A stretch of DNA of 64,000 nt from a virus: positions 1-64,000 of the IMG/VR virus record IMGVR_UViG_3300012964_000001; one strand, 5' to 3'. Shown one piece after another: positions 9,587 to 63,328 of the stretch. Position 1 is the first letter of the stretch, and every line of letters begins with the position of its first letter. Under the pieces are notes generated by a model. The model was not told the DNA's origin and did not search any database. It saw only the letters and a list, made by a program, of their open reading frames with translations. The translations under genes and the position numbers were made by a program.

Positions 9587-9618
9587 AGGCCCCCCGTCGC
9601 GAAAGTGGCGGGGGGCCT
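9587..9618 (-). terminator. 10-bp GC stem-loop 6 nt downstream of the glycosyltransferase stop
   Basis: AGGCCCCCCG 9587-9596 / CGGGGGGCCT 9609-9618 with a 12-nt loop. The T-rich tract is on the + side only. Confidence 0.4.
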
Positions 9619-9623
9619 GGGTT

Positions 9624-45562: not shown

Positions 45563-45916
45563 ATGCCACCTAGAAAAGCACCACCAGTAACTCAACCGAC
45601 CGGAACAGCGACAGAAACGTTCGAGCTCGTATCCGATCCGACCCCTTCGGTTGTGGAGAAATTCTACTCTGCCGCCGACAAGTCGGCCTTGAAGGCCAAG
45701 GTCGACGGAATCACCGAGGAGGTCGAGGAACTCAAGCGCCAGATTGACCTCAAGAAAGAGATCCTGAGCGACGCCGTGTTCGAGCTCAAGCAGGCTCTTG
45801 GCGGAAAGTCCTTCAAGGACTCCCAGGGAACGGTTTGGATGTTCTCTAGCCGCGGCAAAGAGACCCCAACCCACTTCCTGCGCCGGCAGGGCAGCTCAGA
45901 AATAGAGGAGCTGTGA
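45563..45916 (+). CDS. hypothetical protein (117 aa)
   Basis: ATG ORF with a 4-nt overlap to the next gene. Confidence 0.5.
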   Translation: MPPRKAPPVTQPTGTATETFELVSDPTPSVVEKFYSAADKSALKAKVDGITEEVEELKRQIDLKKEILSDAVFELKQALGGKSFKDSQGTVWMFSSRGKETPTHFLRRQGSSEIEEL

Positions 45917-46722
45917 ACCAGCAACCCCGTTCCGTTGCCCAGCAAGCCGGCTGCCAGCAGGCTGAGGCATTCTGCCTGATGCTATACCGTGACTCCGCCG
46001 GTAACGAGGAGTGGATTTGGAACTCACGGGACGGGGTTACGCCTTTCATTGTGCGGTCCCGTCAAGGGCTCTCGTCTCAGCACGTCGATTGGAAACGAGA
46101 CCGGTTCCTTCCCTACCACGTGCCGGCCGTTGGGGACCGGATCTTCGTCACCACGACCCCGGAGCGAGCCCGGGAGCAGGCCGAGTCCTGGTACGAGACT
46201 TGGTCAAAGGACCCTGAGCACGGACCTTACTTCTGTTGGCATTGGCCATATCGGTCAAATGCGGTCGAATGGCAGGCGGCAAAGATTCTTTCCTGGATGG
46301 GAGGCGAGTCACCAGAGCTGATTGAGGTCACCGAAGAGATACTGGAACAGCTCCTGAATCGACCGGCACTAGTGCTTGCGAGCGGACACCAGCGGGCAGC
46401 GTTGCTCCAACAAGTAGAACAAGCGAACATGGAAGCAATTGCCTCCACGTCAAAGTTGGGCCTCGAGCAGCTCCAGCGCGAGCTGGCCGACGAAAACGCC
46501 AAGCTGGCCATGATTGCGTCCACGAAAGCAGAAGATGTGACGGAGCTTACCGACCCGCGTCTCGTGCTCGAGGCCCAGTGTCGCGACCTCGGTAGGCTCA
46601 TCCTTCAACAACTTCCGACGGGTACGGGGTTTACCCTATTGCTGTACGACTTCGGCTCCGACGGTAACCTGGCCTACGTTAGCAGCGGAAAGCGCGAGGA
46701 CTGCCTGAAGATGATGAGATAG
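45913..46722 (+). CDS. hypothetical protein (269 aa, GTG start)
   Basis: Long co-oriented ORF. Confidence 0.6.
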   Translation: MNQQPRSVAQQAGCQQAEAFCLMLYRDSAGNEEWIWNSRDGVTPFIVRSRQGLSSQHVDWKRDRFLPYHVPAVGDRIFVTTTPERAREQAESWYETWSKDPEHGPYFCWHWPYRSNAVEWQAAKILSWMGGESPELIEVTEEILEQLLNRPALVLASGHQRAALLQQVEQANMEAIASTSKLGLEQLQRELADENAKLAMIASTKAEDVTELTDPRLVLEAQCRDLGRLILQQLPTGTGFTLLLYDFGSDGNLAYVSSGKREDCLKMMR

Positions 46723-47119: not shown

Positions 47120-50100
47120 ATGATCCGTGTCGTACAGTTGTCTGATTCCCATTTTCAGCAGAATCGTCGATTCGACGAGTGCATTCGGATGCATGACCTC
47201 ATCGCCGAGCACGTTGAGCGATCGAAGCCTGACTTGGTGGTCCACAGCGGCGAGCTCTATGATCGTCCATCGACACCGCGGGAGCGTGAGGCTGTCGCTG
47301 AATGGGTCCAGCGCATTGCCACGGTCTGCCCGATTGCAATAGTCCGCGGAAACCCGGTTCACGAGGCCGCACAAGAAACCGAGCATCTACGGCGTCTGAG
47401 CTCTACACATCGGATCTTGGCGGTCGAGACGCCCATGATGATGACCCTAGGGGGTGTCGAGCTCTGCATGTTCCCTGCACCGACCAAGTCGGGTGTGCTC
47501 ACGGCCATCGGCCAGATCGGGATCGAACAGGTCAACCAGGTAACCTCCGAGGCGATGCAGAGCCTTTTGAGATGGATGGGAGACAAAGCTACATCGATAG
47601 GTCTTCCACGCATGTTCGTCGGCCATATGATGGTTCGTGGCTCTCGGACAAGCCATGGGCAGGAACTCATCGGGGCCGACTTAGAGCTAGGTCTAGAAGA
47701 CCTGGAACTGGCGAACTGCGATGCATACGCACTCGGCCATATCCATCTTCACCAAACCTTCGAGGCGTTCGGAAAGCCGATTGTCGCCTATTCAGGGAGT
47801 CCATACAGAACCTCTTGGGGAGAGACCGAAGACAAGGGGTTCATCGACTGGATGTTCAAAGAAACGCTCGATGGTTGGCGTGCAGAGTGGAAGTTCATCA
47901 AGCTACCGGCGACCCGGATGCTGCTCATCGAGCCCGAATGGTCCGGAGACGATTGGGCTCCGGGTCCCGGGTGTCCGACCCTGATGGATCCCGTGGAGGG
48001 ATCAGAAGTCCGTCTGCGCTACCGGTGTGAGAGCTCGCAGCGCACCCAGGCCGCCGCAGGGGCCGCCAAGCTACGGGACGAGCTTCTGTCCCGGGGAGCC
48101 GTCTTGGTGAAGCTTGAGCCCATCATCGAGGTCCACAACGCCGCGCGCGCCCCCGAGATTGCGCTGGCGCGCGGGATGGCCGAGAAGCTCCCGGCATTCT
48201 GGGCCGCCCGGGGTACCACCCCAGAGGAACCCCGCCGGTCCCGACTCATCGAGTTGGCAGGCCAAATCGAGGCCAATACACCCCGCCCGGTGGGCATTTC
48301 GACCGGCGCCGCCCTCCTAGACTGGATCAAGCTCCGGGGAATCGGTCCCTTCAAGGGGACGGTGGAAGTCGACTTTCGCGACCTTCCACCGGGCATCGTG
48401 GCGTTCACGGGTCGGATTGGCAGCGGGAAAACGACTCTGATGGAGGCCTACGCTGCAGCGATGTACCGCCGGCTCCCGACGTCCGAGCGGGGCCTCCTGT
48501 CCAAGATGGCCGTCTCCCGCGACGCGTTCGTGGACGTCGGCATCCAGAACGGGCAGTCCCTGCGCATCGTCCACGCCATCGATGGCGGACAGAAGACCCC
48601 CGGGTGGGAGGTCTCGGTCTATGACCGCGGGGTCGAGTCCGCGGAATCTCTCACCGGGTCGAGCAAAGTATCGGCATTCGACGAGTGGCGGGAGACCCAC
48701 ATGCTGCCCCCGGAGATCTTCCTGGCAGGGCCGTTCCAGGCCCAGGGTGCCAATGCCCTGGTTGCCGCCACGGATTCCGAGAGGGCGTCGATCATTCTCA
48801 GGGCTCTCGGACTCGAGTACTACGAGACCATGGCCGAGACGTTCCGGAAGCGCGCCAGCGCGGCCCGGGAGGAACTCGAGAAGGCCACGGCACGCGTGGA
48901 CGACGAGCGTGCCCGCGGGGGCGACGTCGCTCAGTGCGAGCAGGCGTTGGTCGACGAACGCATGGGTCTTGTCCCATCCCAATGGGCGCTCCAGGTGGCC
49001 CGAGACGCTCTCACGGCCGCCGAGCAGGCGCTCCGTGAGCACTCCAGGGACCAGGAGGCCTACCTGGAGGCCGTCGGCGCGCGCGGGGAACTCGAGTCCA
49101 AGATCCGGGACAACCGCGCCCAGTACGCCGACTTGACCGAGCGGATGACGAACAACCAGAAGCGTCTGGCTCAGAAGCCGAAGATCCAGGCCGCTGTCAA
49201 ACGCTCAGACGAGCTTCGGGTGAGCATTTCCGCTGCCGAGGCGGAGCTCGCACGGCTCACCGCCGAGCACCAGGGGCTCCAGCGGGAAGAGCTAGCTTTC
49301 CGGCAGGAATCCGCTGGTCACAAGATTTCATCCGGGTCGGCGCAAGAGCGGGCCGAGTCCGCCAAGCGGCGCCTAGGCCGAAAGCCGGAGATTGACGCCG
49401 CCGCGGCCAGCGTTCCGGGGCTTCGCTCCGCCTGGGAAGAGTCCTTGAAAGCGGCTGAGGAAACGGTGCATAGGGTCCGCGGAGACGTGGCGGCTGCCGA
49501 AGCCGAGCTCGAACGGCTGCGCGGCTTGCGGGTGGTTGGGTCAGAGGACCGCATCATCGGACTCCGCTCTGGTCTCGAACAGGTAGTGTCATTGGCAATC
49601 ATAGGGCGCGGCACCCATGAATGCGCACAGGGTACCCTGCACCGTGACGATGAGGCAGCCACGTTGGCGCTGGAACTGCCGACTCAGATCACCCGCCAAG
49701 CCGCCGAGGTCACTCGGCTCCGTAGGCTGCTGGAGACCGTCACCCAACAGTCCGGGGAGAATCGGGACGAGGCCGCGCGGGCGCTCTCCAAAGCCGAGCA
49801 ACTGGCGGCTGAGTCAAAGCACCTGGATGCCGACCAGCAGGAACTCGAGTCCGCGCTTGGAGACCTACAGCGCTACCAACAGGCCGAGCGCGCCTGCATC
49901 GCCAAGTCCACCGATACGATCCAGCGTCGCACGAAAGTCCAAGAACTACGGGACTCCCTGGAATTCACTGAGCGCTCTTCCATGGAAGAGCTTCAAAAGC
50001 TAGCACCGGTCGTCGCCTACAAGGAGCAGGCGGACAAGGCGGAGGCCCGAATCGAGCAGCTAGAACGGGAGCTTGCGCGTATCGACTCCGAGCATACCGA

Positions 50101-50845
50101 ACTCACCCAAAAACTTGCCCGAGGTCCGGCGGTGGTCCTTCCCCCTCCACCACCGCCGGATGTCTCGGGCCTACGGATTTCCGTAGGCAACGCCGAAAGC
50201 CAAGTGCAGGCCGTGACTACCGCAATCGCCCGCGCCGAGCAACGGCTTGATATGGCCCGGGAGAGCGCCGGTCGGGTCCTGGAGCTCGAGGCCGCTCGGG
50301 CACAACGGGCGGAAGCGCAGGCCGATTGTCAGCGTCTGGCTGAAGACCTCGGCAAGAAGGGTCTCCAAAGCGCCGAGATTGACGCCGTGGGTGCAGAGCT
50401 CACGGCAGACACGAACGACTTGCTTCATTCCTGCCTCGGAAGCACGTTTACGGTCTCGGTGGAGACAACCCGCACCGTTGACAAGGGCAAGCGTGAGGTC
50501 GATGCCTTGCCGATTATAGTCTTCAACTCTGACGACGGATACGAAGGCGAGGTCCGGACCTACTCCGGAGGTCAGAAGGCTCTGATCGGGGAAGCGCTGG
50601 CGCTCGCGCTGACGATTCTGTCGTGCCGGCGCGCTGGAATCGACCATGGGTTGACACTCATACGTGATGAACCAACGGCATCGTTGTCCCCTGAAGATGC
50701 GCGCGCATATGTTTCTATGATGCGCGCCGCTTCCGCGATCGTTCACGCACGACACGTTCTCTGCATCACGCACAACGACGCTGTCAGTAACGCTGCAGAC
50801 GTCCAGGTGAAGGTAGCCAACGGAAGCGTGGAGGTAATCCAGTGA
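47120..50845 (+). CDS. fused SbcD-SbcC (Mre11-Rad50-like) nuclease/ATPase, 1241 aa
   Basis: The N-terminal phosphoesterase has LSDSHF, VHSGELYD, VRGNPVHE and ALGHIHLHQ. Then come Walker A FTGRIGSGKTT, a long coiled-coil, ABC signature YSGGQKALIGEALALAL, Walker B LIRDEPTASL and H-loop CITHND. Confidence 0.85.
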   Translation: MIRVVQLSDSHFQQNRRFDECIRMHDLIAEHVERSKPDLVVHSGELYDRPSTPREREAVAEWVQRIATVCPIAIVRGNPVHEAAQETEHLRRLSSTHRILAVETPMMMTLGGVELCMFPAPTKSGVLTAIGQIGIEQVNQVTSEAMQSLLRWMGDKATSIGLPRMFVGHMMVRGSRTSHGQELIGADLELGLEDLELANCDAYALGHIHLHQTFEAFGKPIVAYSGSPYRTSWGETEDKGFIDWMFKETLDGWRAEWKFIKLPATRMLLIEPEWSGDDWAPGPGCPTLMDPVEGSEVRLRYRCESSQRTQAAAGAAKLRDELLSRGAVLVKLEPIIEVHNAARAPEIALARGMAEKLPAFWAARGTTPEEPRRSRLIELAGQIEANTPRPVGISTGAALLDWIKLRGIGPFKGTVEVDFRDLPPGIVAFTGRIGSGKTTLMEAYAAAMYRRLPTSERGLLSKMAVSRDAFVDVGIQNGQSLRIVHAIDGGQKTPGWEVSVYDRGVESAESLTGSSKVSAFDEWRETHMLPPEIFLAGPFQAQGANALVAATDSERASIILRALGLEYYETMAETFRKRASAAREELEKATARVDDERARGGDVAQCEQALVDERMGLVPSQWALQVARDALTAAEQALREHSRDQEAYLEAVGARGELESKIRDNRAQYADLTERMTNNQKRLAQKPKIQAAVKRSDELRVSISAAEAELARLTAEHQGLQREELAFRQESAGHKISSGSAQERAESAKRRLGRKPEIDAAAASVPGLRSAWEESLKAAEETVHRVRGDVAAAEAELERLRGLRVVGSEDRIIGLRSGLEQVVSLAIIGRGTHECAQGTLHRDDEAATLALELPTQITRQAAEVTRLRRLLETVTQQSGENRDEAARALSKAEQLAAESKHLDADQQELESALGDLQRYQQAERACIAKSTDTIQRRTKVQELRDSLEFTERSSMEELQKLAPVVAYKEQADKAEARIEQLERELARIDSEHTELTQKLARGPAVVLPPPPPPDVSGLRISVGNAESQVQAVTTAIARAEQRLDMARESAGRVLELEAARAQRAEAQADCQRLAEDLGKKGLQSAEIDAVGAELTADTNDLLHSCLGSTFTVSVETTRTVDKGKREVDALPIIVFNSDDGYEGEVRTYSGGQKALIGEALALALTILSCRRAGIDHGLTLIRDEPTASLSPEDARAYVSMMRAASAIVHARHVLCITHNDAVSNAADVQVKVANGSVEVIQ

Positions 50846-51333
50846 CCGCGGGAGGTAGTGGAGTCACCCAATCCCACACCGTCAACTCAGAACTCACGGT
50901 CACTGTGCATTCAGACGGCACGGTCACGTGGTCGTCGGCCTACCCTATGTCAGTCGAAGAGGTTCGAAAACAGATCGCTCGACAGCGCTGCAAGTCATCG
51001 GATCGCGTAGATGAGCTCGAGCGATTGTGGTCGATGGTAAGTGCGCCCCCAACGATCTGTGGTTCATCCATTCTGGAAGCAATCAACCAGTCGTATCCTC
51101 AGCATCCCGATCTCAAGATCACCACGCTAATCGGTGTGGTCTACGTTGAACTAGCTCACGAGCTGCCGCCTAAAGACTCATCGCCATACATCGCCACCAT
51201 CGCATCGGCTCTCGAGGCCGCCGGGTACTCATGTACCCGGAGCCGCACTCGGGTCACGGTGCGCGCCCACGCCAACTCGCTTCCAGAACGCGAACCAGAC
51301 TTCGTATGCACACGATATGACCACGACTTTTGA
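50842..51333 (+). CDS. hypothetical protein (163 aa)
   Basis: 4-nt overlap with the SbcCD fusion stop. Confidence 0.55.
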   Translation: MTAGGSGVTQSHTVNSELTVTVHSDGTVTWSSAYPMSVEEVRKQIARQRCKSSDRVDELERLWSMVSAPPTICGSSILEAINQSYPQHPDLKITTLIGVVYVELAHELPPKDSSPYIATIASALEAAGYSCTRSRTRVTVRAHANSLPEREPDFVCTRYDHDF

Positions 51334-51347
51334 CGCCGGCATCCACC

Positions 51348-51935
51348 ATGCAAACGAACCCAATCCTCACCCTTCTTGAGTTGGTGGACTTCCACCTATC
51401 GACCACAGAACGTGCTCCAAAGGATCTTCCTGCAGAGGTCCAAGCTGTCGAAAAGAGACAACGAGAGCTCTTGGCGTCCAAAGAATGGCTTATGCATTTG
51501 AAGGATGCAGAATGGACCACTCCATTCAACTGCCGAGACTGCGGTGCAAAGCCAGGTGATCTTCATATACCAGGCTGCGACACAGAGACTTGCGCGATCT
51601 GCGGATGGCAGGCAATTAGCTGTCCTTGTGTCAAGAAGTTCGCACCGTCAAAACCTATCATTGACGATGAAGACGCAGACCCGACCCCAGAGATGTGGTC
51701 CGCATACGATTCGGCTGTCTCTGCCTTAGGCGGACGTATCCAATGGTCAGGATTAGCATCCGGGGTGAGAGAGTGCGTCGAGTTTGGATGGTTCGCGCGC
51801 TGGGATGAAGAGCTACAACGTCATGTAAGATGCGACTATGCTCATCCAAACGCTTTGCCAGACCTCAACCGGGTCACGCACCCATGTGGTGAAGCTAAGT
51901 GGGACAAAAAACTGCGCCGCTTCGTGAAGCGGTAG
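51348..51935 (+). CDS. Cys-rich hypothetical protein (about 195 aa; TTG 51330 alternative)
   Basis: CRDCGAKPGDLHIPGCDTETCAICGWQAISCPC is a zinc-binding-like cluster. Confidence 0.55.
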   Translation: MQTNPILTLLELVDFHLSTTERAPKDLPAEVQAVEKRQRELLASKEWLMHLKDAEWTTPFNCRDCGAKPGDLHIPGCDTETCAICGWQAISCPCVKKFAPSKPIIDDEDADPTPEMWSAYDSAVSALGGRIQWSGLASGVRECVEFGWFARWDEELQRHVRCDYAHPNALPDLNRVTHPCGEAKWDKKLRRFVKR

Positions 51936-51947
51936 CCTAGAGTCAAT

Positions 51948-52169
51948 ATGACAATCGATAGCACCTTACCCGATCCAGAGGACCAAGAAGTCTGCGCGAT
52001 CAGCGTCAACCCATCCGAATACGCCGCGATGACTGAGTTGATCGCGGGCGCGGAAGATAGCGTCTGGACCATTCTAGTAATCGCCGGCCAGCTCGTGCCT
52101 TCGGGGCAGATACGCTGCTCCTGTTCCGACGGAACTAGTGTCTGGTTGGATTGGGCTAGGACGTCATAA
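51948..52169 (+). CDS. hypothetical small protein (73 aa) directly upstream of the Cas12-like gene
   Basis: It lies 12 nt after the previous stop, and its stop is 2 nt before the next ATG. It shares a 13-nt start-region repeat with the next gene. Confidence 0.45.
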   Translation: MTIDSTLPDPEDQEVCAISVNPSEYAAMTELIAGAEDSVWTILVIAGQLVPSGQIRCSCSDGTSVWLDWARTS

Positions 52170-52171
52170 CG

Positions 52172-54094
52172 ATGAATACCATGCACACGACAATCGATAG
52201 CGCCCTCGGCGCCACCCGGAGTGGGGAAGCTACTGGCTTGACGCTCGACAATCATGACGCCCCAGTGGCGTCACACGTTGCACCCGCGAAAGCGGTAGGG
52301 CGGACTCCACCGCCCGAAGTCGAACAAGTCAAGACAGATGCCACCCAGGTAGCACCGGGGGCCCTATCGATAGTCCGTGCCACTTGTCGAATCCTGCTGG
52401 ATGTGGCGGTGCTCGCCGCAGACCGACGCGAACACATCGCCAAACGATGCGGGGGTACCGAAGGCGGGTGCAAGGCCTGCCAGCTACAGCAGGAGCTTCG
52501 GGGAGCCCAACGAGAAGCCGTTCGGGCCGCTAATGCGGCGATGCGGGTTCATTGGCGTGCCGACGCCGATATCTTGGATCAGGCGCTTCTTGCCACCGGC
52601 GCTCCGCCGGCAAAGGCCGCGGACTGGAAGCGCTTCGCCCAGATTGACCCAGAGCGGCTGGTTCGCGCGGTATCCCCGGGACTCAGCAGGGGAGAGACGA
52701 AGCTTGCAGCAGGTGAGCTTGTGAAGACCAGTAAGGCCGATAAGACCTATTTGTCGACCTATCGCCTAGTCCGTGTGATCGCCCCAGATCTCCCAGGTGG
52801 TATCGCGTCGGCCATCTCGGATTCCGTTCAGTCCAAGTGGCAGCGTGAACGGTTCGCCTCTCTGGTCCGCTGCACCAAGTCTCCACCGCACTATACGGGG
52901 ACAATGCCACTGCCGCTGCGCGCCGCCGATTGCGCACTGACCCATTGTGTGGATGATGACTACGAATTCACCTTTGCTATTCGCGGTGGCCTCGGGCACC
53001 GATGGACGCTCCCAATCTCCGCACGCGACGGTGCCACCAAGAAACGCTATCTGGCGAAGTTACTGTCCGAACTCGCTGGCTCGAACGTGAAGTTCGGAGC
53101 CTGCCAGATCTCTGAGGACCGTATGCGACCAGGTCGCTGGTTCGTCCGTATCGCCTACACCCGGCGAGTCGATGCAGCTGTCGTGGGCAAGAACGACTGC
53201 GCAATCCATCTAGGCATCGTCAACTTCATGGCTGCCTTAGGCAGCGATGGAGAACGTTTCATCATCGAGGGCAACGACATTCGGACTCACCTTGCGCAGA
53301 TCCAGGCACGCCGGAGAAGCTATCAGCGACAGATCAAATACAGCAACCGGACCGGCCGCGGTAGAGAAGCAGCGTTGGCGGCGAGTCGAAAACTAGCAGG
53401 TGCACACGAACGTTGGGTCGACACGACCATCCAACGGATCGCACGATCCATCGCAAACTGGGTCAAAGAGCACGGATACAGCCGCGTCTACATGCCGGAT
53501 TTTACCCGAGTACGGGACTCCGTCCCGGAGCTTCTAGAGCGTAGTGACTCGGTCTACCAGTGGCTCCAAGAGTGGCCATACTACCGGATGCAGCAGGCCA
53601 TACGGTCTTGCCTCGAGGAGGTAGGCATCGGTTGCAATCACGAATGCTCGGGTAGCCGAGCTAGGCCCCCCACATGCAGCTGTATCGCGGAACGTGGTAG
53701 CGGAGTAGATGATGGTGTCCTATCGCGTCATGCTTGCCCGGCATGCGGAGAGACCGAGGCGCTAATCGAAGACCTCGGGATCAGGACCTTCCGCTGCGAA
53801 AGCTGTGGTCACCATGGTCCTCTGGACGTAGTATTGGCCGAGCTAATCCTCGCTCGCGGTCGCGAGCGCCGAGGTGACTCGGACTCGCTTATAGGAGAAA
53901 ACGGCTCGAAGCTTGGACCACCAAAGGGCAAAAACGGAGGCGCTCGCAAAGCGTCACGTAAGTACCCGAAATCAAAAGGTCCTCGCCGGGCGGGGTCAGA
54001 AGAGAGTTCAGTGTGCAACGTGATTGGAGCTATGGCCCGCCGACCAGCGGCGCAGCAGCTCCTTCGTCAGAAGAGAGTTCAGTGTGCAACGTGA
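52172..54094 (+). CDS. compact TnpB/Cas12-fold CRISPR-associated effector candidate (type V-like) with non-canonical RuvC motifs; ORF runs into the array
   Basis: WED-like GRWFVRIAY. RuvC-I-like CAIHLGIVNFMAALGSDG, a helical insert, then RuvC-II-like YSRVYMPDF. Zinc ribbon CPACG...FRCESCG, followed by GPLDVVLAELILARG in place of D-x-NAA-x-NI. About 607 codons precede repeat 1, and the stop TGA 54092-54094 lies inside repeat 2. Confidence 0.75.
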   Translation: MNTMHTTIDSALGATRSGEATGLTLDNHDAPVASHVAPAKAVGRTPPPEVEQVKTDATQVAPGALSIVRATCRILLDVAVLAADRREHIAKRCGGTEGGCKACQLQQELRGAQREAVRAANAAMRVHWRADADILDQALLATGAPPAKAADWKRFAQIDPERLVRAVSPGLSRGETKLAAGELVKTSKADKTYLSTYRLVRVIAPDLPGGIASAISDSVQSKWQRERFASLVRCTKSPPHYTGTMPLPLRAADCALTHCVDDDYEFTFAIRGGLGHRWTLPISARDGATKKRYLAKLLSELAGSNVKFGACQISEDRMRPGRWFVRIAYTRRVDAAVVGKNDCAIHLGIVNFMAALGSDGERFIIEGNDIRTHLAQIQARRRSYQRQIKYSNRTGRGREAALAASRKLAGAHERWVDTTIQRIARSIANWVKEHGYSRVYMPDFTRVRDSVPELLERSDSVYQWLQEWPYYRMQQAIRSCLEEVGIGCNHECSGSRARPPTCSCIAERGSGVDDGVLSRHACPACGETEALIEDLGIRTFRCESCGHHGPLDVVLAELILARGRERRGDSDSLIGENGSKLGPPKGKNGGARKASRKYPKSKGPRRAGSEESSVCNVIGAMARRPAAQQLLRQKRVQCAT

Positions 54095-54901
54095 TTGGAG
54101 GGACCTCTACCGCGGCCGAAATTTCGACATCGATCAAGTCAGAAGAGAGTTCAGTGTGCAACGTGATTGGAGGTTGCATGAATACCGTCCAGGACGAGGC
54201 CGACCGAATGTCAGAAGAGAGTTCAGTGTGCAACGTGATTGGAGGTAGCGCGGGGCATCGCCCACCATGACGACCGGCATGGTCAGAAGAGAGTTCAGTG
54301 TGCAACGTGATTGGAGGGACATCCGCGGAGGTCGAAATCTCTGCATCTAGCAGTCAGAAGAGAGTTCAGTGTGCAACGTGATTGGAGGGAGGTGACGCCC
54401 GACGGAGTGCGGCCGGTACCCCCCGTCAGAAGAGAGTTCAGTGTGCAACGTGATTGGAGGTTCGTAATCGAGGTGGAGCACCTTCCCTTGCCGGACCGTC
54501 AGAAGAGAGTTCAGTGTGCAACGTGATTGGAGGTTGCGCCAAGCAAAGGGGACCTGGACGGCGTTCGGCTGGTCAGAAGAGAGTTCAGTGTGCAACGTGA
54601 TTGGAGGCAGGATGGAGGATGCCGCGGGCGATGGAATCGACGAGCTGTCAGAAGAGAGTTCAGTGTGCAACGTGATTGGAGGCTCGGTGGGAGCTCGTTC
54701 AGCGAGCTAAGAAGAGAATGTTAGAAGAGACTTCCATGTGCAACGTGGTTGGAGGTGGATACACTCGAGCGACCCATGCAAAATGTCGGATGGTCAGAAG
54801 AGGTTCCGGTTCCAAGGCAAAGGCCGATCGGGCTGGCGCAGTCAGAAGAGAGTTTCAGTGTGCAACGTGATTGGAGGTCCCATGTGCAACGTGAAGGGAG
54901 G
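53995..54901 (+). CRISPR. CRISPR array: 10 x 36-bp repeat GTCAGAAGAGAGTTCAGTGTGCAACGTGATTGGAGG plus decayed distal copies
   Basis: Repeats start at 53995, 54066, 54138, 54210, 54282, 54353, 54425, 54498, 54572 and 54647; only repeat 1 differs, at its last base. Spacers are unique and 35-39 bp long. Decayed copies are 54720-54755 (5 mismatches), 54793-54807 (truncated), 54841-54877 (1-nt insertion) and a 3' half-copy at 54881-54901. Confidence 0.95.
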
Positions 54902-54937
54902 CGCCCGACTCCAAGGAATCGAAGTCAAGATCTAAGC

Positions 54938-54966
54938 TTGACACGGCCGGCCGAACATCTTATTAT
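54938..54966 (+). promoter_or_regulatory. near-consensus sigma70 promoter TTGACA-17-TATTAT just downstream of the array
   Basis: TTGACA 54938-54943, a 17-nt spacer, then TATTAT 54961-54966. It is followed by hairpin CGCGGCC-AAA-GGCCGCG and the ATG at 55021. Confidence 0.55.
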
Positions 54967-55020
54967 ATGGCCATGACGCTCTGAACGCGCGGCCAAAGGC
55001 CGCGGGAAAGCCGGCCTCCG

Positions 55021-55248
55021 ATGGAAAAGACCCTTAGAACCGAAACCAGCACTCCGCTGCGACTGATTGGCCGCGTCGCGCTTCCGGACGCCAGAGACGC
55101 CCTGCTCACCGGGGATGACCTCTGGGGCCTCTGGAACGCTTCCCTAGAGCTCGTAGACGATGGTCAGACTCCCGACCTGGTTCAGTTCGCCATCACGAAC
55201 GACGGGGCGGAGAGCTTCCTCGAAGAGACCGGGACCGGGGCGGCGTAA
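55021..55248 (+). CDS. hypothetical small acidic protein (75 aa)
   Basis: First ORF after the promoter, with a TAATG overlap to the next gene. Confidence 0.5.
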   Translation: MEKTLRTETSTPLRLIGRVALPDARDALLTGDDLWGLWNASLELVDDGQTPDLVQFAITNDGAESFLEETGTGAA

Positions 55249-55445
55249 TGGACTCGAAGAGCCCAACTCCAGAGCAAGTCGAACGGTGGGCTAAGCTTGC
55301 TCCCGGGACATTGCCAGAGGCTGAGATTCAAGAAGCCGCTCGGCAACGAATCCGTTCAATGACTCCGGAGCAGATTCGGAAGACGTTCATTGACGCTGGA
55401 ATCTATACCCAAGATGGAAAGCTCCGACCGGAATACGGTGGATGA
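55248..55445 (+). CDS. hypothetical small protein (65 aa)
   Basis: Coupled to the upstream ORF. Confidence 0.45.
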   Translation: MDSKSPTPEQVERWAKLAPGTLPEAEIQEAARQRIRSMTPEQIRKTFIDAGIYTQDGKLRPEYGG

Positions 55446-55552
55446 CAACGACAAGCGGTGCTCGTTCAGAGTTGCTGGGATGACGCTGGAGGACGCGCTG
55501 GCTGGCCCAGCGAAGGGACTGGTCTGCCCGGTATGCGGGAGGAGCGGGTAGC

Positions 55553-55768
55553 TTGCGTCGCGTGACTCCGTTGATAGTTGCGACTACGGTATGCGGAGCG
55601 GTTCTTTTTGGATACCTCTTATACAGGGTCCGAGACGGAGAAGGATGGTGCCGCGCCGCGTGCTCCGGTGATCGCATGATGCTGTGTTCACAGCACTACA
55701 AACAGGGTGACGTAGCCCTATGTCTTAGCCAGAATGGGCGTCTCTACCCAGTCGAAAGGCACCGCTGA
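55553..55768 (+). CDS. small membrane protein (71 aa)
   Basis: RRVTPLIVATTVCGAVLFGYLLY is a TM helix. Confidence 0.4.
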   Translation: MRRVTPLIVATTVCGAVLFGYLLYRVRDGEGWCRAACSGDRMMLCSQHYKQGDVALCLSQNGRLYPVERHR

Positions 55769-55771
55769 ACT

Positions 55772-55795
55772 CAAAAAACAAGCGCCCGAGGGCTC
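55772..55795 (-). terminator. 24-nt repeat CAAAAAACAAGCGCCCGAGGGCTC, copy 1; weak hairpin + T6 on the minus strand
   Basis: The minus strand reads CCGAgcccTCGGgcgcTTGTTTTTT. It lies at the convergence point of the + and - blocks. Confidence 0.35.
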
Positions 55796-55836
55796 GGAAG
55801 GGGAAGCCGGACTTCTACGGCGCGGCGGCGAAGTGG

Positions 55837-56091
55837 TCAGCCACGCTTCCGGTTTCCTGCGTGCTCAGCTAGCACCTTGCAGACAACCCCGCCTTTGACG
55901 AGCACTCGGTAACGATCACCTCGGTGGCTGCCCTTCAGGCGAAAGACCGTGTACCCGTTGTCCTGCCGGCGTACCTCGCGCGCTTCCGGTAGGCGAGCCT
56001 GAAGTTCCGCCTGCGCCTTGTCCTCCGAGATTCCGGAAAGCGCGGCGTACTCGCGTACCGCTTCAACCTTGATCGCGAATTCCATGGTCAT
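55837..56091 (-). CDS. hypothetical protein (84 aa)
   Basis: ATG (MTMEF) with an ATGA overlap at 56088-56091. Confidence 0.5.
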   Translation of the reverse strand: MTMEFAIKVEAVREYAALSGISEDKAQAELQARLPEAREVRRQDNGYTVFRLKGSHRGDRYRVLVKGGVVCKVLAEHAGNRKRG

Positions 56092-56366
56092 TCGGAACGG
56101 CATTTTTGGGCGCCTCCACATGAACATCCATCATGACCACAGACGCAGATAAAGGTTGTGTTGTGCTCACAACAATCATGGCCACAGGCCAAGCATACCT
56201 GGTGACAGTCCCAGGGGTGTTTACCGTGCGGGCAATAGGGGCCAGTGTCCCAATCCAGGTCTTCGTTCTCTTTTGCTGAAGATTCCATGGGCCCCTGAAA
56301 CATGTCGGCCCGACCGCCTAGGACGATCGGGCCTTTTTTTGTAGTGGTCGCCGCCGACCTTCGCAC
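56088..56366 (-). CDS. Cys/His-rich small protein (start uncertain)
   Basis: CPHGKHPWDCHQVCLACGHDCCEHNTTFICVCGHDGCSCGG. Confidence 0.45.
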   Translation of the reverse strand: MRRSAATTTKKGPIVLGGRADMFQGPMESSAKENEDLDWDTGPYCPHGKHPWDCHQVCLACGHDCCEHNTTFICVCGHDGCSCGGAQKCRSE

Positions 56367-56432
56367 TTTTCAAAAAGGCAAACGGTGGCGGCTGACGAAG
56401 AGCTTTCCTCACTTCGAAGCTCTGGTCAACCC

Positions 56433-56456
56433 CAAAAAACAAGCGCCCGAGGGCTC
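56433..56456 (-). terminator. 24-nt repeat CAAAAAACAAGCGCCCGAGGGCTC, copy 2
   Basis: Exact copy of 55772-55795. Confidence 0.35.
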
Positions 56457-56536
56457 AGGGGGGGGATGAGCCGCTCAGGCGCTGAAGGGTGAATCCTGCA
56501 CGAATTCACCCTTGGATGCAATCTCATTCTAGCTGT

Positions 56537-56580
56537 CCCAAAGACGCCCAAAGCCCCCGCCGGCCGAAGCCAACGGGGGC
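56537..56580 (-). terminator. intrinsic terminator-like hairpin downstream of 56726-57253
   Basis: GCCCCCG 56553-56559 pairs with CGGGGGC 56574-56580. On the minus strand it is followed by TTTGGGCGTCTTTGGG. Confidence 0.5.
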
Positions 56581-56725
56581 AGTGAACGCCGCGCCACCCT
56601 GGGGCCCGGGCGCGGGGCAGGAGGCCGCTAGATGGTGATGAGCTGGGCTACATCAGGCCCAGCAAGGAGCCCATCAGCTTCCCCAGGGAGAACTTGACCC
56701 AACTGGCATGCCATGGGCACTTCAC

Positions 56726-57253
56726 TCATCGGGCGCGAGAAGGCGATTTTTCGGCCACTACGGCTGGAGCTGGATGCACAGATGACTGCTGCGTGACCAC
56801 AGACGCGCTCTTCGCCCGTTCACTCAGGTACCCCATGGCAGCGGTACCAAACGCTAGGAGTCCCATGGCGAAGGCCCAGAGGCGCCCCGAGCGCGCCGCA
56901 GCCCCGAACTCCTTGCGCATCATCAGGTGGTCCTTGGCGTTCTCCGCCGCCACCTGCTGGGCCGCAAGCTTGGCTTCCCGGGCCTCTAGCTTACCCTCTC
57001 GGGCCTCAAGCTCTCCCTTGTAGGCCCGCTGCTTGGCGTCACGCGCCAGTTCTTCGACCGAGCGCATCCACGCCACTTCCTCCTTGGGACGGTCTACCGT
57101 TGGGCGGATCGAGTCGGCTTTGAGCGCTGGGGGTCGATCATGCACCCATGTCGATTCGTAGAGGTCCTCTTCGGAGAAGTCTGGGTGTTCATCACTCATG
57201 GCACTTTCCCCCATCCTTCGCATCATCTGGGGAGTATCTTCGGTATCAGTCAC
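56726..57253 (-). CDS. coiled-coil protein with C-terminal TM helix (lysis-cassette accessory candidate)
   Basis: GELEAREGKLEAREAKL and the TM segment LWAFAMGLLAFGTAAMGYL. It sits downstream of the endolysin genes. Confidence 0.55.
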   Translation of the reverse strand: MTDTEDTPQMMRRMGESAMSDEHPDFSEEDLYESTWVHDRPPALKADSIRPTVDRPKEEVAWMRSVEELARDAKQRAYKGELEAREGKLEAREAKLAAQQVAAENAKDHLMMRKEFGAAARSGRLWAFAMGLLAFGTAAMGYLSERAKSASVVTQQSSVHPAPAVVAEKSPSRAR

Positions 57254-59623: not shown

Positions 59624-60198
59624 GCGCGCTCCTCTGCCGCCTGCTTCAGCGTCACGGACTCGACACTCTTGCTAGCCACCGCCCACAGGTCAAAGTAGCC
59701 CGTCTTGACCCGCACGGATCCGAATCCAGAGAGCCACAGCGCTCGTTCCAGCGTCGCCTTTGTGAACCCGGTACGGTGAGCCTGAAAGCCATTACCCTGA
59801 AGGATCCACTGCCGGTTCCCGTACAGCATATCGATCGGGCAGATCGGCCCCGCAGGGCTGCTGTACGCCGGAACGTCCAGGCCTCCCTTCAGCAATGCCT
59901 CGGCGACCTGGCCCAAATCCGGCACTGTAATGAGCGCAAAGCCATCCGGTACCAGTACCCGGATGAACTCGCGTAGCGCTAACTCGGCTTCGTGCGCTTC
60001 CAAGTGCTCGAGGCCGTGAGACGACCAGACTGCATCGACTGAGTCCGAATCGACCATCGGCATCGAATGCATCGAAGACACGATATCGGGCTTGACGCCA
60101 GCATTTACATCAAGTCGGACCTCATGCCATTCGGAGTTGCAGAACGACTCATGAAGAATCCCCTGAGCTCCGCACCCAACGTGCAGCACCGTTTTCAT
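59620..60198 (-). CDS. class I SAM-dependent methyltransferase
   Basis: VLHVGCGAQG and VWSSHGLEHL, with ATGA coupling on both sides. Confidence 0.7.
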   Translation of the reverse strand: MKTVLHVGCGAQGILHESFCNSEWHEVRLDVNAGVKPDIVSSMHSMPMVDSDSVDAVWSSHGLEHLEAHEAELALREFIRVLVPDGFALITVPDLGQVAEALLKGGLDVPAYSSPAGPICPIDMLYGNRQWILQGNGFQAHRTGFTKATLERALWLSGFGSVRVKTGYFDLWAVASKSVESVTLKQAAEERA

Positions 60199-60953
60199 CA
60201 GTACACAACCCCTGTTTCTACGTCCATGTGCCCGACCCGCACCCGCATGTCGACGGCGAAGCGCTTACCGACACGCCGCGCTCGCTCGCAGAAGTACAGA
60301 TCTTGCGTGAATGCCATGATGCCCTTGTCCGGTATGATGTCGTTGACCGTGACGAACCACGGCGGATCGATCTCGCGGAATAGGTCCATGCGCCATAGCG
60401 CGCAGCCCATGCCGATGCCGTTGACCTCCATGATCGTACCGGCTTCGACCGCATGGGCGACGTCACGCGGTTGCATCGTCAGCACTCCGGTCCGGGCGTA
60501 CTCCGCGGGATCCCCGTAGGCCATCGGCATGTTCCAGTCGCCCTTGGTGAAGTAGAGGCCCGAGACGGCGTCGTAGCCGCCCCAGTCGATGGTCTCGAGC
60601 AACCGGATGTGCGCGTCGGGAGGCGGCAGGTTGTCGTCCTCCATGGTCATGATGTACTTCCACTTGGATAGGTACGGATCCTTCAGGATGCGGCCCACCA
60701 TCTCGGTGTAGGCGTGCCCGACCTCATCACCCTCCGTGAAGGTCAGCCATCGTTTCTGGTTCATCGGCGCGATCAGCCCGATCCAGCTCCCAATCACCTT
60801 CGGGTCGATGAGGCCCCGCGAGGGAACGAGCTGGATGGTGCTGCAGTCTTTGAACGTGGATCCGTGTAGCAGCTCGACGCGCTCGAATCCCAGCGGACTC
60901 AGCGCGTCGACTACCGAGGGCATGTCCAGCATCTGCTCGGCGCGACCCGACAT
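60198..60953 (-). CDS. GT-A-fold glycosyltransferase-like protein (tentative)
   Basis: IMTMEDDNLPP is a DxD-like motif. ATG overlaps the stop of the collagen-like gene. Confidence 0.45.
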   Translation of the reverse strand: MSGRAEQMLDMPSVVDALSPLGFERVELLHGSTFKDCSTIQLVPSRGLIDPKVIGSWIGLIAPMNQKRWLTFTEGDEVGHAYTEMVGRILKDPYLSKWKYIMTMEDDNLPPPDAHIRLLETIDWGGYDAVSGLYFTKGDWNMPMAYGDPAEYARTGVLTMQPRDVAHAVEAGTIMEVNGIGMGCALWRMDLFREIDPPWFVTVNDIIPDKGIMAFTQDLYFCERARRVGKRFAVDMRVRVGHMDVETGVVY

Positions 60954-63328
60954 CACGGCACCCCCGTCGCTCTCATGAGTACCCACGGAGTTCTTGGGTT
61001 CATGTAGTTGATATCCGTTAGGTTCACGGAAGCGCGCATGGCGGCCGTTGAAGTAGCGTAATAACCTAGTCCATCATCGATGCGGCGCGACGTAATGCCA
61101 GAGGATTCTCCGAAGCTACCCGAATAGTTCTGAACGCCCCCCATCATGGATAGGTTGCATGAACCGTTCGCGGTGCCACCGTTGCTCGTTTGCAGAAGGT
61201 AGCCAATCCAATATTGCCCCGGAGTCATCGATAATGCAGCGGCGACGCTGAATTCTTTGACGCCGTTGTAACTTGCAGTACTGACGTTCGACGTGAAACT
61301 CCAGCTGTAGGAAACCGAACCACTCGCCATACTAGTGAGCGTAGATCCAGTTAGAGAATAAACCCCAAGAGCCACCGACAAATAGCCCGACCGAGTGCCT
61401 GAAGTCGACGTGTTCATCGATACGCTGAGCAGCATCTTGAGCTGCGTCATCGTTAGCGAATTGTCCAGAATGAAGGGCACGAACCCATTGAACTGATTCG
61501 AGAATGCGCCAGCACTCAGCGATACGCCTTCGGCGATGGCGTATCGCGAGAGCATGATACCAGGACCACCGGTCACTCCCTGTGATCCCTGCGAACCTTG
61601 AGCTCCCTGTGAGCCTTGAGACCCTTGGGACCCTTGCGCGCCTGCGGCGCCGGAACTCCCCTGGAAGCCCTGAAAACCTTGGGCGCCTTGAGAACCCTGG
61701 GATCCCTGGGCGCCACCGGCGCCCGAACTTCCCTGGAAGCCCTGAAAGCCCTGTGATCCCTGAGACCCTTGGGAGCCTTGGGCTCCTCCGGCACCGGACG
61801 TTCCCTGAAAGCCCTGGAATCCTTGGGACCCCTGAGACCCTTGGGAGCCCTGGAAGCCCTGGGCACCACCGGCACCCGAGCTCCCCTGGAAGCCTTGGAA
61901 GCCTTGCGAGCCCTGGGAACCTTGGAAACCCTGGGCACCACCGGCACCCGAAGTACCCTGGAAGCCCTGGAACCCTTGCGAGCCCTGGGACCCTTGGAAG
62001 CCCTGAACCCCCTGTAAACCTTGGGATCCTTGAGACCCCTGATAGCCCTGGGCGCCACCGGCGCCGGATGTTCCTTGAAAGCCTTGGAAACCCTGTGATC
62101 CTTGGGATCCCTGTGATCCTTGCGACCCCTGGTAGCCTTGGTAACCCTGAAAACCCTGGGTTCCCTGAAAGCCCTGAGGACCAATCGTTCCCGGTACGAC
62201 GATCCAACGCGGCGGAGAGATCTGAGACGATTCGATGACCGCTACATCGAAGTTGATCGTCATGACGAGGTAGCGGTTACTCGTGCCGGTGCGCGAATCA
62301 GAGATGAGGCCCGTCACGCCTGAATCAAGCGTGATGTTGTAGGTCTGGGCCTGCCCACCCGCATCCTGAACCTGAACGTATCGATTGAGGACGCTCGGAC
62401 TCGGCAGAGTGAAGGTCGGACCCGAGGAGAGTCCGGAACAGACGACGACTTGGTTGATGTCGTCCAGAGTATCGCTGCCGCTTTTGCTCAGTACGGTTGG
62501 GATGCCAGTAACACCCTGGAAGCCCTGGTTGCCCTGAAAGCCCTGATTGCCCTGGAAGCCTTGGTTGCCCTGAAAGCCTTGGAAGCCCTGGGCACCATCG
62601 GCGCCCGAGCTCCCCTGGAAGCCCTGGAAGCCTTGGGATCCTTGAGACCCTTGTGAGCCTTGAAAGCCCTGAAATCCTTGGAAGCCTTGAGAGCCCTGAG
62701 ACCCCTGCGACCCTTGGAATCCCTGAACCCCATCAGCACCCGAACTGCCTTGGAAGCCCTGGAAGCCCTGAAAACCCTGGGAACCCTGCGATCCCTGGGA
62801 TCCCTGGAATCCCTGAACGCCATCGGCTCCCGAGCTACCCTGGAAGCCTTGGAAGCCCTGAAAGCCCAGGGATCCCTGTGATCCCTGGGACCCTTGGAAG
62901 CCCTGGAAGCCCTGAAAACCCTCCGACCCCTGCGATCCCTGAAACCCCTGGAATCCCTGCGCGCCGGAGCCGGAACTTCCTTGGTAACCCTGGAACCCCT
63001 GGTTTCCCTGAAATCCCTGGTAGCCTTGCGCGCCCTGCGATCCCTGCGGCCCGCCGGGATCTCCCTGCTCTCCTTGGGTCCCCTGAGTTCCTTGGGCCCC
63101 ATCATCGCCCTGGGGACCCTGTTCCCCATCGATGCCCTGAGTCCCCGGCACACCCTGAGGACCCTGGGGGCCTCCGTACTCACCCTGCGGTCCCTGTGCT
63201 CCGTCGTCGCCCTGCGGCCCTTGCGCGCCATCATCGCCCTGGGGTCCCTGGATCCCGACGTGCGTGTGGGTGCCGGGCGGAATCTGCTCAGCAGTCCCGG
63301 TTCCCCGGAGTGTCGATAGCTCGGGCAT
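60953..63328 (-). CDS. collagen-like triple-helix repeat protein (tail-fibre candidate), two G-x-Q blocks + globular insert + C-terminal domain
   Basis: Long runs of GFQGSQGSQ / GPQGDDGAQ triplets are interrupted by a ~110-aa non-repeat segment. A ~190-aa non-repeat C-terminus follows. Confidence 0.85.
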   Translation of the reverse strand: MPELSTLRGTGTAEQIPPGTHTHVGIQGPQGDDGAQGPQGDDGAQGPQGEYGGPQGPQGVPGTQGIDGEQGPQGDDGAQGTQGTQGEQGDPGGPQGSQGAQGYQGFQGNQGFQGYQGSSGSGAQGFQGFQGSQGSEGFQGFQGFQGSQGSQGSLGFQGFQGFQGSSGADGVQGFQGSQGSQGSQGFQGFQGFQGSSGADGVQGFQGSQGSQGSQGFQGFQGFQGSQGSQGSQGFQGFQGSSGADGAQGFQGFQGNQGFQGNQGFQGNQGFQGVTGIPTVLSKSGSDTLDDINQVVVCSGLSSGPTFTLPSPSVLNRYVQVQDAGGQAQTYNITLDSGVTGLISDSRTGTSNRYLVMTINFDVAVIESSQISPPRWIVVPGTIGPQGFQGTQGFQGYQGYQGSQGSQGSQGSQGFQGFQGTSGAGGAQGYQGSQGSQGLQGVQGFQGSQGSQGFQGFQGTSGAGGAQGFQGSQGSQGFQGFQGSSGAGGAQGFQGSQGSQGSQGFQGFQGTSGAGGAQGSQGSQGSQGFQGFQGSSGAGGAQGSQGSQGAQGFQGFQGSSGAAGAQGSQGSQGSQGAQGSQGSQGVTGGPGIMLSRYAIAEGVSLSAGAFSNQFNGFVPFILDNSLTMTQLKMLLSVSMNTSTSGTRSGYLSVALGVYSLTGSTLTSMASGSVSYSWSFTSNVSTASYNGVKEFSVAAALSMTPGQYWIGYLLQTSNGGTANGSCNLSMMGGVQNYSGSFGESSGITSRRIDDGLGYYATSTAAMRASVNLTDINYMNPRTPWVLMRATGVP

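Follow-up and report, generated by a model that had tools for sequence, protein, structure and literature searches.

Overall organization of the locus

A compact type V-like CRISPR (clustered and regularly interspaced short palindromic repeats) locus is encoded on the plus strand of a 64,000-nucleotide (nt) stretch of viral DNA, positions 1 to 64,000 of the IMG/VR record IMGVR_UViG_3300012964_000001. This whole stretch is referred to below as the window, and its numbering is used throughout. The locus contains an open reading frame (ORF) for a Cas12f-like effector with an altered RuvC active site, followed by an array of ten repeats. Two further elements overlap the ends of the ORF: a candidate trans-activating CRISPR RNA (tracrRNA) at the 5' end and a conserved pre-array ('leader') element at the 3' end (Table 1). 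A preliminary description of this DNA, made from the letters alone, had assigned positions 52172–54901 to the locus. That extent holds for the ORF and the array, but in functional terms the locus comprises more, as the tracrRNA-like RNA and the leader element had been missed.

The 36-nt repeat, GTCAGAAGAGAGTTCAGTGTGCAACGTGATTGGAG[G] (also written GTCAGAAGAGAGTTCAGTGTGCAACGTGATTGGAGG), is present in ten copies that start at 53995, 54066, 54138, 54210, 54282, 54353, 54425, 54498, 54572 and 54647, with a repeat-to-repeat spacing of 71–75 nt. The sequence confirms what had been reported of this array: the copies are identical with the sole exception of the last base of repeat 1 (C), and the spacers, 35–39 nt in length, are all unique. 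The distal end is decayed. It contains a repeat with 5 mismatches (54720–54755), a heavily decayed one (~54797–54830) and one with a single inserted T (54841–54877), followed by a partial copy at 54878–54901. The repeat has no hairpin of its own (fold z=+1.4), and a tracrRNA is therefore expected, as for Cas12f. Its 3' end, ...TTGGAGG, is common to the repeats of related loci.

The effector ORF contains no stop codon ahead of the array. The absence of a gap between ORF and array, noted previously, is correct, but the two do not merely abut: the frame reads through repeat 1 and spacer 1 into repeat 2, with the last 33 codons formed by array sequence and the stop codon at 54092–54094. The size range of 607 to 640 amino acids (aa) given for the protein arises because the ORF runs on into the array. 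In-frame start codons occur only at 52172, 52181, 52238 and 52265, which are all upstream of or inside the structured RNA described below, and the GC content by codon position gave no decision on the translation of residues 1–65.

As in the preliminary description, no adaptation module was recognized: Pfam scans of 30 ORFs, which included most Cas1-sized ORFs and the 10 nearest neighbors but not three Cas1-sized ORFs (41946–42719, 45913–46722 and 60198–60986) and most small ORFs, revealed no Cas1, Cas2 or Cas4 domain.

Table 1. Features of the CRISPR locus in the window.
Feature	Position	Strand	Details
Candidate tracrRNA, structured RNA	52183..52380	+	stem arms 52189-52219 / 52345-52375, three-way junction; overlaps ORF codons 4-70
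Anti-repeat CACGTTGCAC	52274..52283	+	perfect complement of repeat positions 19-28 (GTGCAACGTG)
Cas12f-like effector ORF, predicted nuclease-dead	52172..54094	+	640 aa as open frame, 607 aa up to array
RuvC-I position	53207..53209	+	His346 in place of catalytic Asp (AIHLGI vs Cas12f GIDLGV)
RuvC-II position	53495..53497	+	Pro442 in place of catalytic Glu (VYMPDF vs IQMEDL)
Zinc ribbon CxxC...CxxC (TNB domain)	53735..53806	+	Cys522, 525, 542, 545
RuvC-III position	53825..53827	+	Asp552 kept (PLDVV vs NADYNAA)
Conserved pre-array ('leader') element	53934..53994	+	core motif GCTCGCAAA 53942-53950, 53 nt before repeat 1
CRISPR array	53995..54682	+	ten 36-nt repeats, nine spacers between; tenth spacer 54683-54719 after repeat 10
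Decayed distal array end	54720..54901	+	degenerate repeats and partial copy

Relationship of the effector to Cas12f1

The peptide motifs quoted in the preliminary description are all found in the ORF, and its reading of a TnpB/Cas12 domain order was correct. The Pfam family OrfB_IS605 matches the effector above the cutoff (4.9e-8), and a phmmer search against the sequences of PDB entries retrieves SpCas12f1 (9i8y, 1.6e-16) and AsCas12f (~6e-14). Similarity of profile and fold, proposed at that stage as a check on the assignment, is significant. A profile of the effector family matches AsCas12f with E=3.8e-66 (227 bits) and SpCas12f1 with 4.7e-64. The best Foldseek matches of an AlphaFold model of the effector are ternary complexes of AsCas12f (8j12, E=8e-23; template modelling (TM) score of 0.76 normalised to the target), and all of the top 50 are Cas12, TnpB or Fanzor proteins. 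The model was built from 7 sequences with a mean predicted local distance difference test (pLDDT) score of 67, and its confident regions cover residues 63–567.

The conserved core of the protein spans ~52367–53874 (aa 66–568), while residues 1–62 and 568–607 are unconserved and modelled with low confidence. The zinc ribbon is matched by PF07282 (Cas12f1-like_TNB) below the cutoff (E=6e-4), and its four cysteines are kept in ~98 of the 102 members of the clade described in the next section. The length of the effector up to the array lies within the 400–700 aa range of subtype V-F1. Taken together, the sequence comparisons and the structure model identify the effector as a Cas12f1 relative. The comparators suggested previously, Cas12j/CasPhi and Cas-lambda, were thus wrong: CasPhi matches ~100 C-terminal residues only (profile positions 439–537, E=7e-10) and is not among the top Foldseek hits.

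A lineage-specific insertion of ~22 aa rich in Cys and Ser, NHECSGSRARPPTCSCIAERGSGVDDGVLSRH (aa 497–519; 53660–53730), is located just ahead of the zinc ribbon of the window effector. It is found in none of the aligned homologs and is modelled with pLDDT <50.

A clade without the RuvC-I aspartate

The RuvC triad of the effector is H346-P442-D552, where D-E-D is expected. In the phmmer alignment with PDB sequences, His346 occupies the engineered D-to-A column of the dead AsCas12f entry 7wju (GIALGV). The atypical active site remarked on earlier is borne out, and the case is stronger than first described, as two of the three catalytic carboxylates are gone.

A word-index search for homologs gave just 7 proteins, and the identical 7 when run with an alignment of 67 sequences; the family was revealed by an exhaustive hidden Markov model (HMM) search of 1.84 billion representatives. 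About 100 clusters (50% identity) match the effector profile over the full length with 350–790 bits, and below them ordinary Cas12f/TnpB proteins match the core only, with at most 190 bits. In a joint alignment of the clade, the residue at the RuvC-I position is Asp in 0 of 102 members (it is N in 70, H in 16, T in 7, R in 6, Q in 2 and C in 1). Among the 47 lower-scoring relatives, by contrast, 34 are D-E-D. The sub-branch of the window protein (WIN) is also without the RuvC-II Glu: WIN and P0009 have H-P-D, P0029 and P0043 have R-P-D, and P0003 has H-V-D. Full-length clade members have a median length of 548 aa versus 436 aa for the D-E-D relatives (~110 aa more). Besides the zinc-ribbon cysteines and the RuvC-III Asp, ~35 further positions are at least 90% conserved in the clade.

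Because the zinc ribbon, the RuvC-III Asp and these ~35 positions are conserved, and because the array has ten perfect repeats, the clade looks like the product of selection for a non-cutting protein, not of decay. A non-functional remnant of a captured Cas12f locus would account for the lost catalytic residues, the degenerate distal repeats, the lack of a clean stop before the array and the crumbled array of one related locus (L016). It would not explain why ~100 clusters keep their full length, the zinc ribbon and many invariant residues, why the repeats of the window are intact, or why, as shown below, the anti-repeat co-varies with the repeat and the leader motif keeps a fixed distance across proteins that are ~35% identical. 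We therefore consider decay to be highly improbable.

The replacement of two catalytic carboxylates (D to H, E to P), together with the clade-wide loss of the RuvC-I Asp, indicates that the effector probably binds DNA and does not act as a nuclease in interference; RuvC cleavage of double-stranded DNA is predicted to be lost. It could be argued that the protein is still an RNA-guided nuclease, by virtue of a site rearranged to use a different acidic residue, of His/Asn chemistry or of a recruited host or phage nuclease, and that it acts in interference like CasPhi or Cas12r. Rearranged yet active catalytic sites are documented among TnpB/Cas12 proteins (PMC10691335), the RuvC-III Asp and the RuvC-II Glu are kept in 96 of 102 and 76 of 103 clade members, respectively, and an SbcCD nuclease fusion is encoded 1.3 kb upstream of the locus. 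Nevertheless, the residue missing from every member is the very one mutated in 7wju, and the window effector has in addition exchanged its Glu for Pro. No other acidic residue is invariant except D131 and D286, which are located in the REC/WED parts, and no neighboring gene, that of SbcCD included, is conserved across loci. A retained nuclease activity is thus unlikely, although the N-E-D triad kept by most of the clade allows for it to some degree.

A candidate tracrRNA with a co-varying anti-repeat

The structured RNA at the 5' end of the ORF is 198 nt long, with a minimum free energy (MFE) of −101.1 kcal/mol (z=−7.3), and none of 200 shuffled sequences was as stable. Its closing stem is an inverted repeat of 31 nt with 81% complementarity. 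No pairing is predicted for the anti-repeat, which falls between hairpins 1 and 2 and is located within the unconserved N-terminal extension of the ORF, where the pLDDT is below 30. An Rfam scan of positions 50000–57000 detected no known RNA family, and no tRNAs were found within the window.

The same relationship is found in all eight of the array loci: an 8–11-nt perfect complement to positions 17–30 of the locus's own, differing repeat lies 90–217 nt upstream of the start of the conserved core (IVRAT motif). In controls, a complement of at least 9 nt was reached by 1 of 56 mismatched repeat/zone pairs and, among 331 other tiles of these loci, by 6 (1.8%). At the latter rate, the 7 of 8 observed has a binomial probability of ~5e-12; the zone was picked after viewing the data, yet the margin is very large. 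The anti-repeat is unpaired in the MFE structure at 5 of 6 loci. The RNA has the same layout in L002, L005, L006 and L008 (z from −2.7 to −8.2), and in 10 of 12 related loci an equivalent stable structure immediately precedes the protein core, with z near 0 for gene-body controls. A consensus fold of four orthologous regions contains 20 pairs, among which 7 show compensatory double changes. L005 has the element in an intergenic position. Since the anti-repeat co-varies with the repeat of its own locus, we regard the structured RNA as a candidate tracrRNA.

The anti-repeat was found by a search for exact complements combined with its position across loci. Scans by duplex energy, of the window and of the 700 nt before each array, yielded nothing convincing, as GC-rich background duplexes mask the 10-bp match.

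The co-variation also bears on whether the locus might serve as an anti-CRISPR decoy, soaking up the CRISPR RNAs (crRNAs), tracrRNA or Cas protein of a host Cas12f system and so disarming host type V-F immunity. Such a role has been proposed for a phage-encoded RuvC-dead Cas9, and phages are known to use repeat-mimicking RNAs (PMC11656645, PMC10651486). A decoy would have no need of a repeat and an anti-repeat that co-evolve in cis, nor of the phages' own arrays of 10–19 unique spacers. Moreover, the repeats differ widely among related phages, all being purine-rich and unstructured and ending in ...GGAGG, ...GAAGG or ...GCAGG. A decoy function is accordingly very unlikely.

The 13-mer GACAATCGATAGC in the 5' arm of the closing stem (52187–52201) recurs at 51948–51962, at the start of an upstream 73-aa ORF; the peptide contexts of the two copies are MTIDS... 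and ...TTIDS.... This other copy might offer the 3' arm an alternative to pair with, or it might have arisen by a local duplication. The N-terminal extension of L002 contains a 78-nt tandem duplication (7691–7837) with strong hairpins, just downstream of the tracr-like element.

A conserved element ahead of the array

The leader element is located within the disordered C-terminal tail encoded by the ORF. Its core motif, in the form GCTCGCRRR, is found 51–54 nt ahead of repeat 1 in all eight loci with regular downstream arrays. The motif is read as G-A-R-K (phase 0) in WIN, L002 and L008 and as V-L-A-K/N (phase 2) in L006, L010 and L011, and it is non-coding in L005, where it lies past the stop codon. 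Across loci, the ORF stops between −102 and +97 relative to repeat 1. As both the reading frame of the motif and the position of the stop vary, conservation is at the nucleotide level, and the motif is a nucleotide-level signal whose spacing to the array is constrained. It resembles GCGCUCGCCAA, a motif inside the tracr-like RNA. Possible roles of the element are those of a promoter for the array, of a signal for processing or loading, and of a partner that pairs with the putative tracrRNA.

GCTCGCAAA occurs just once per strand across the window. The minus-strand copy (35194) is attributed to chance, as it is part of ordinary coding sequence and is not followed by a repeat. Several other explanations of the motif were rejected. 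A folded RNA is not indicated, as RNAalifold gave 0 pairs for the pre-array region. A sigma-70 promoter does not fit the hexamer spacing, and a promoter scan found none there. A 'conserved guide 0', with a degenerate repeat before the motif, is not compatible with L015 and L008, which have no repeat-like sequence at this position.

Comparison with known type V systems

Cas12f1 proteins (AsCas12f, SpCas12f1, OsCas12f and Un1Cas12f/Cas14a) are the closest to the effector by both sequence and fold. The two systems share a compact effector, a TNB zinc ribbon and an unstructured purine-rich repeat. Cas12f1 also requires a tracrRNA, whose pairing partner is the middle to 3' part of the repeat, and the structured RNA of the window is a candidate for this role. 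The two differ in the H-P-D triad, in the absence of the RuvC-I Asp from the whole clade, in the ~110 additional residues that include an N-terminal segment, and in the layout of the locus, where the ORF shares its 5' end with the tracr-like RNA and its 3' end with the array and no cas1, cas2 or cas4 was found. The clade is also phage-borne: a scan of 185,579 species-representative genomes for [RL]IQEWPYY, a single pattern and hence not an exhaustive search, detected no cellular relative.

Large branches of Cas12f with altered catalytic sites have been reported (Altae-Tran et al. 2023, PMC10691335). In Bacteroidetes, a dCas12f directs transcription under RNA guidance by recruiting sigma-E (Hoffmann et al., Nature 2026, PMC13472631). 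The latter proteins are chromosomal, C-terminally truncated with loss of RuvC-III, linked to rpoE or helix-turn-helix genes and mostly without arrays, and they use a fused single guide and no tracrRNA (PMC13472631). Both these proteins and the phage clade are nuclease-inactivated Cas12f descendants that presumably bind DNA under RNA guidance. Unlike the sigma-E type, the phage clade retains its C-terminus and combines arrays of several spacers with a separate, putative anti-repeat RNA, and no partner gene is conserved beside it. The solved dCas12f structure 9n9c reaches just 72 bits with the family profile. An operonic linkage to rpoE, which in those systems encodes an ECF sigma factor with a C-terminal extension, was also sought, with no sigma domain found in the 10 ORFs nearest the effector and no gene of any kind conserved beside it across 13 loci. 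Based on the profile scores, the retained zinc ribbon and RuvC-III and the lack of a conserved neighbor, the phage clade does not belong to the sigma-E lineage.

The sigma-E precedent (PMC13472631) nevertheless raises the question of whether the dead effector recruits RNA polymerase, a sigma factor or another machine, for example to activate transcription. The ~110 extra residues of the clade relative to active relatives could provide an interaction surface, and a weak Sigma70_r4 gene is located 3.3 kb from the homolog in L001. However, neither a sigma factor nor any other gene is conserved beside the effector, the profile score of the sigma-E type is far below the 227 bits of active AsCas12f, and, unlike the sigma-E-type proteins, the phage clade retains RuvC-III, the C-terminal zinc ribbon and multi-spacer arrays. 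Recruitment of this kind is improbable.

A separate dCas12f cluster, found near CRISPR arrays with a structured RNA upstream of the array, may repress genes (PMC13472631). The phage clade may coincide with this cluster or with V-U43/44 (PMC10691335). Searches of the literature turned up no account of a dead Cas12f that is encoded by a phage together with an array and a tracrRNA.

The best functional analogy is Cas12m (type V-M), a type V effector of mobile elements that silences without cleaving double-stranded DNA. Cas12m uses a crRNA only, is mostly plasmid-borne and employs its non-canonical RuvC domain for crRNA processing. The effector is not a member of the Cas12m clade: UnCas12m4a matches the family profile with E~1e-6 over ~75 residues, and Cas12m2 has TM scores of 0.35–0.41. 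TldR proteins are RuvC-dead, RNA-guided repressors with the TnpB/Cas12 fold, and some are encoded by prophages. Unlike the effector, they descend directly from TnpB, are ~350–400 aa long, use a single guide resembling omega RNA and are linked to fliC or oppF. ISDra2 TnpB matches the family profile with E=3e-4, and the closest active relatives are Cas12f1 proteins, not IS605 TnpB. Cas12j/CasPhi, Cas-lambda and Cas12r are compact phage type V effectors with arrays and no adaptation genes; they differ in being active, in having no tracrRNA and in the architecture of their repeats, and sequence similarity to them is confined to the C-terminal RuvC/Zn region. Cas12j/CasPhi and Cas-lambda use guides made of crRNA only, which their RuvC domain processes. 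Cas12r of Thermus phages, for example, is an active nuclease without a tracrRNA, and its spacers target rival integrative elements (10.64898/2026.04.20.719267).

Spacers and possible targets

The window spacers are not copies of local sequence, a possibility that had been raised in the preliminary description (best match 24/36). Spacers 2 (54102–54137) and 5 (54318–54352) align in register with ~70% identity, and of the 11 positions at which they differ, 6 are in the same codon phase. Such a pattern is what homologous coding sequences of diverged targets would give, and it provides a weak hint in this direction. The 24-base consensus of the two spacers matched nothing in IMG/VR or in GTDB genomes. 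In a related locus, spacer 1 of L005 (3767–3802) shares an exact block of 19 nt with an ORF of L003 (7044–7079; 23/36 positions, E=1.6e-5), another phage contig, whose family member has no array. The repeat-proximal 11 nt are mismatched, so that the L003 ORF would not itself be the target; it appears instead to be homologous to the real one. Both cases weakly hint at phage genes as the source of spacers.

A perfect 14-nt complementarity between spacer 2 (54105–54118) and the effector gene (53353–53366) is regarded as due to chance more probably than to self-regulation through this spacer. Its three repeat-proximal bases are mismatched, and it falls in conserved NRTGRGR codons (blastn-short E=0.015).

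Proposed function of the locus

We consider it reasonably probable that the locus is a self-contained, phage-borne module derived from Cas12f1, in which a nuclease-dead effector performs RNA-guided binding and silencing of DNA. It would consist of four parts arranged on one strand without gaps, namely a tracrRNA-like RNA, the dead effector, the leader element and the array. As the ORF runs into the array, the locus is probably transcribed rightward as one unit. The 10-nt anti-repeat exposed by the structured RNA would pair with positions 19–28 of every repeat, as in Cas12f tracrRNAs and as the covariation suggests, which would leave the conserved ...TTGGAGG 3' end beside the guide. The effector, possibly as a dimer like Cas12f, would then bind the tracrRNA:crRNA duplex. 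According to its sequence and structure model, it keeps the Cas12f fold and the zinc ribbon and has His and Pro in place of the RuvC-I Asp and the RuvC-II Glu. By analogy to Cas12m, TldR and engineered dCas12f, it would bind complementary DNA without RuvC cleavage, stop the target from being transcribed or replicated, and in this way serve as a multiplexed CRISPR interference (CRISPRi) system of natural origin. Binding-only type V effectors and phage type V arrays directed against mobile elements both have precedents (PMC11656645, PMC10442227, PMC13472631, 10.64898/2026.04.20.719267). Rival phages or other mobile elements are slightly favored over host genes as the targets. As no adaptation genes were found, it would fall to host machinery or to recombination to supply new spacers. 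As no neighboring gene is conserved, it can be argued that the effector and its RNAs act alone.

Several observations weigh against this proposal. The structure model is of only moderate quality, given its mean pLDDT and the 7 sequences behind it. Most of the clade is N-E-D, and the retention of the Glu and the RuvC-III Asp could mean a residual or altered catalytic role, or a role in RNA processing. No protospacer was found for any window spacer in INPHARED and PLSDB, for three spacers and the spacer 2/5 consensus in IMG/VR, or for the consensus in GTDB genomes, and no spacer has a target in the window itself or in related loci; as a consequence, no protospacer-adjacent motif (PAM) can be derived. 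Finally, three of the related loci (L001, L003 and L009) have no array near the gene within the flanks that were fetched.

A broader proposal is put forward more tentatively, as something we find plausible without leaning towards it: that large uncultivated phages carry a distinct, unnamed Cas12f1-derived subtype for partner-free multiplexed CRISPRi against mobile elements or the host, with its tracrRNA in the 5' end and its leader in the 3' end of the ORF, and with GCTCGCAAA as a new processing, loading or autoregulatory signal.

Binding-only type V systems are known from plasmids (Cas12m), transposons (Cas12k) and Bacteroidetes chromosomes (dCas12f-sigmaE, TldR). If the proposal of a silencing module is correct, natural CRISPRi would also be a part of phage biology, in the form of a sizeable clade of dead Cas12f proteins that is restricted to phages and has multi-spacer arrays. 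This raises the question of what a virus gains from silencing its target rather than cutting it. Possible answers are non-lethal control of the host, exclusion of competitors without a DNA-damage response, and evasion of repair-based escape. The overlap of the tracr-like RNA and the leader element with the two ends of the ORF is an unusually dense form of coding, reminiscent of TnpB and its omega RNA, and is relevant to the evolution of Cas12f guide RNAs. An effector of ~540 aa that is dead by nature, with its tracrRNA:crRNA guide, would also be a candidate compact scaffold for CRISPRi or base-editor fusions.

Distribution of related loci and genomic context

The related loci are located on metagenome contigs from soil and groundwater, in which small ORFan genes are densely packed, and two relatives are found on viral genomes in IMG/VR, 182 kb and 78 kb in length. 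No INPHARED phage matched when 20 kb of the window was compared by megablast, and the phage thus has no close cultured relative there. An array adjoins the effector gene in 10 of the 14 loci with enough flank, counting the decayed array of L016. Arrays are located downstream of the gene in WIN, L002, L004, L005, L006, L008, L010, L011, L015 and L016, and upstream in L007. An all-against-all blastp comparison of 766 neighboring ORFs from 13 loci gave 0 cross-locus matches, and hence no conserved partner gene.

Some of these arrays are unusual. In L016 (UViG 3300037714_000266, an N-E-D member), the array at 9500–9858 is reduced to a core of ~10 nt, GAGATGGAGG, at irregular intervals of 20–45 nt, which suggests either that the ...TGGAGG 3' end is a minimal handle or that this array is collapsing. 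The L002 array (9279–10580) contains ~17–19 repeats, which, uncommonly for CRISPR, vary from one to the next at numerous positions. Among the loci without an array, the core of L003 is still preceded by a very stable structure (z=−5.3). In L009 the tracr signature pair GGYGAGAA...GCTCRMNAA is found at 668–721, 3.2 kb ahead of the gene, and in L001 the weak Sigma70_r4 gene is located downstream. These three loci may work with a distant array or a single guide.

The genes surrounding the locus in the window are those of a phage, as stated in the preliminary description, and include two DnaB helicases, an SbcCD fusion, a methyltransferase, a collagen-repeat tail fiber and a GH25 lysin. The fusion protein is encoded by a 1241-aa ORF (47120–50845, plus strand), in which an N-terminal SbcD/Mre11-like phosphoesterase is joined to an SbcC/Rad50-like ATPase; it is not kept beside the effector elsewhere. 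Directly past the decayed array end, a near-consensus sigma-70 promoter (54938–54966, plus strand; TTGACA-17-TATTAT, 11/12 positions) points toward small ORFs at 55021–55445, suggesting that the genes downstream of the array form a transcription unit separate from the CRISPR locus. The two DnaB-like helicase genes are adjacent (16552–19270, minus strand). The 490-aa protein is a full-length helicase with both the N- and C-terminal DnaB domains, and in the 426-aa protein the DnaB_C domain follows a region that matches an HNH-endonuclease PHROG.

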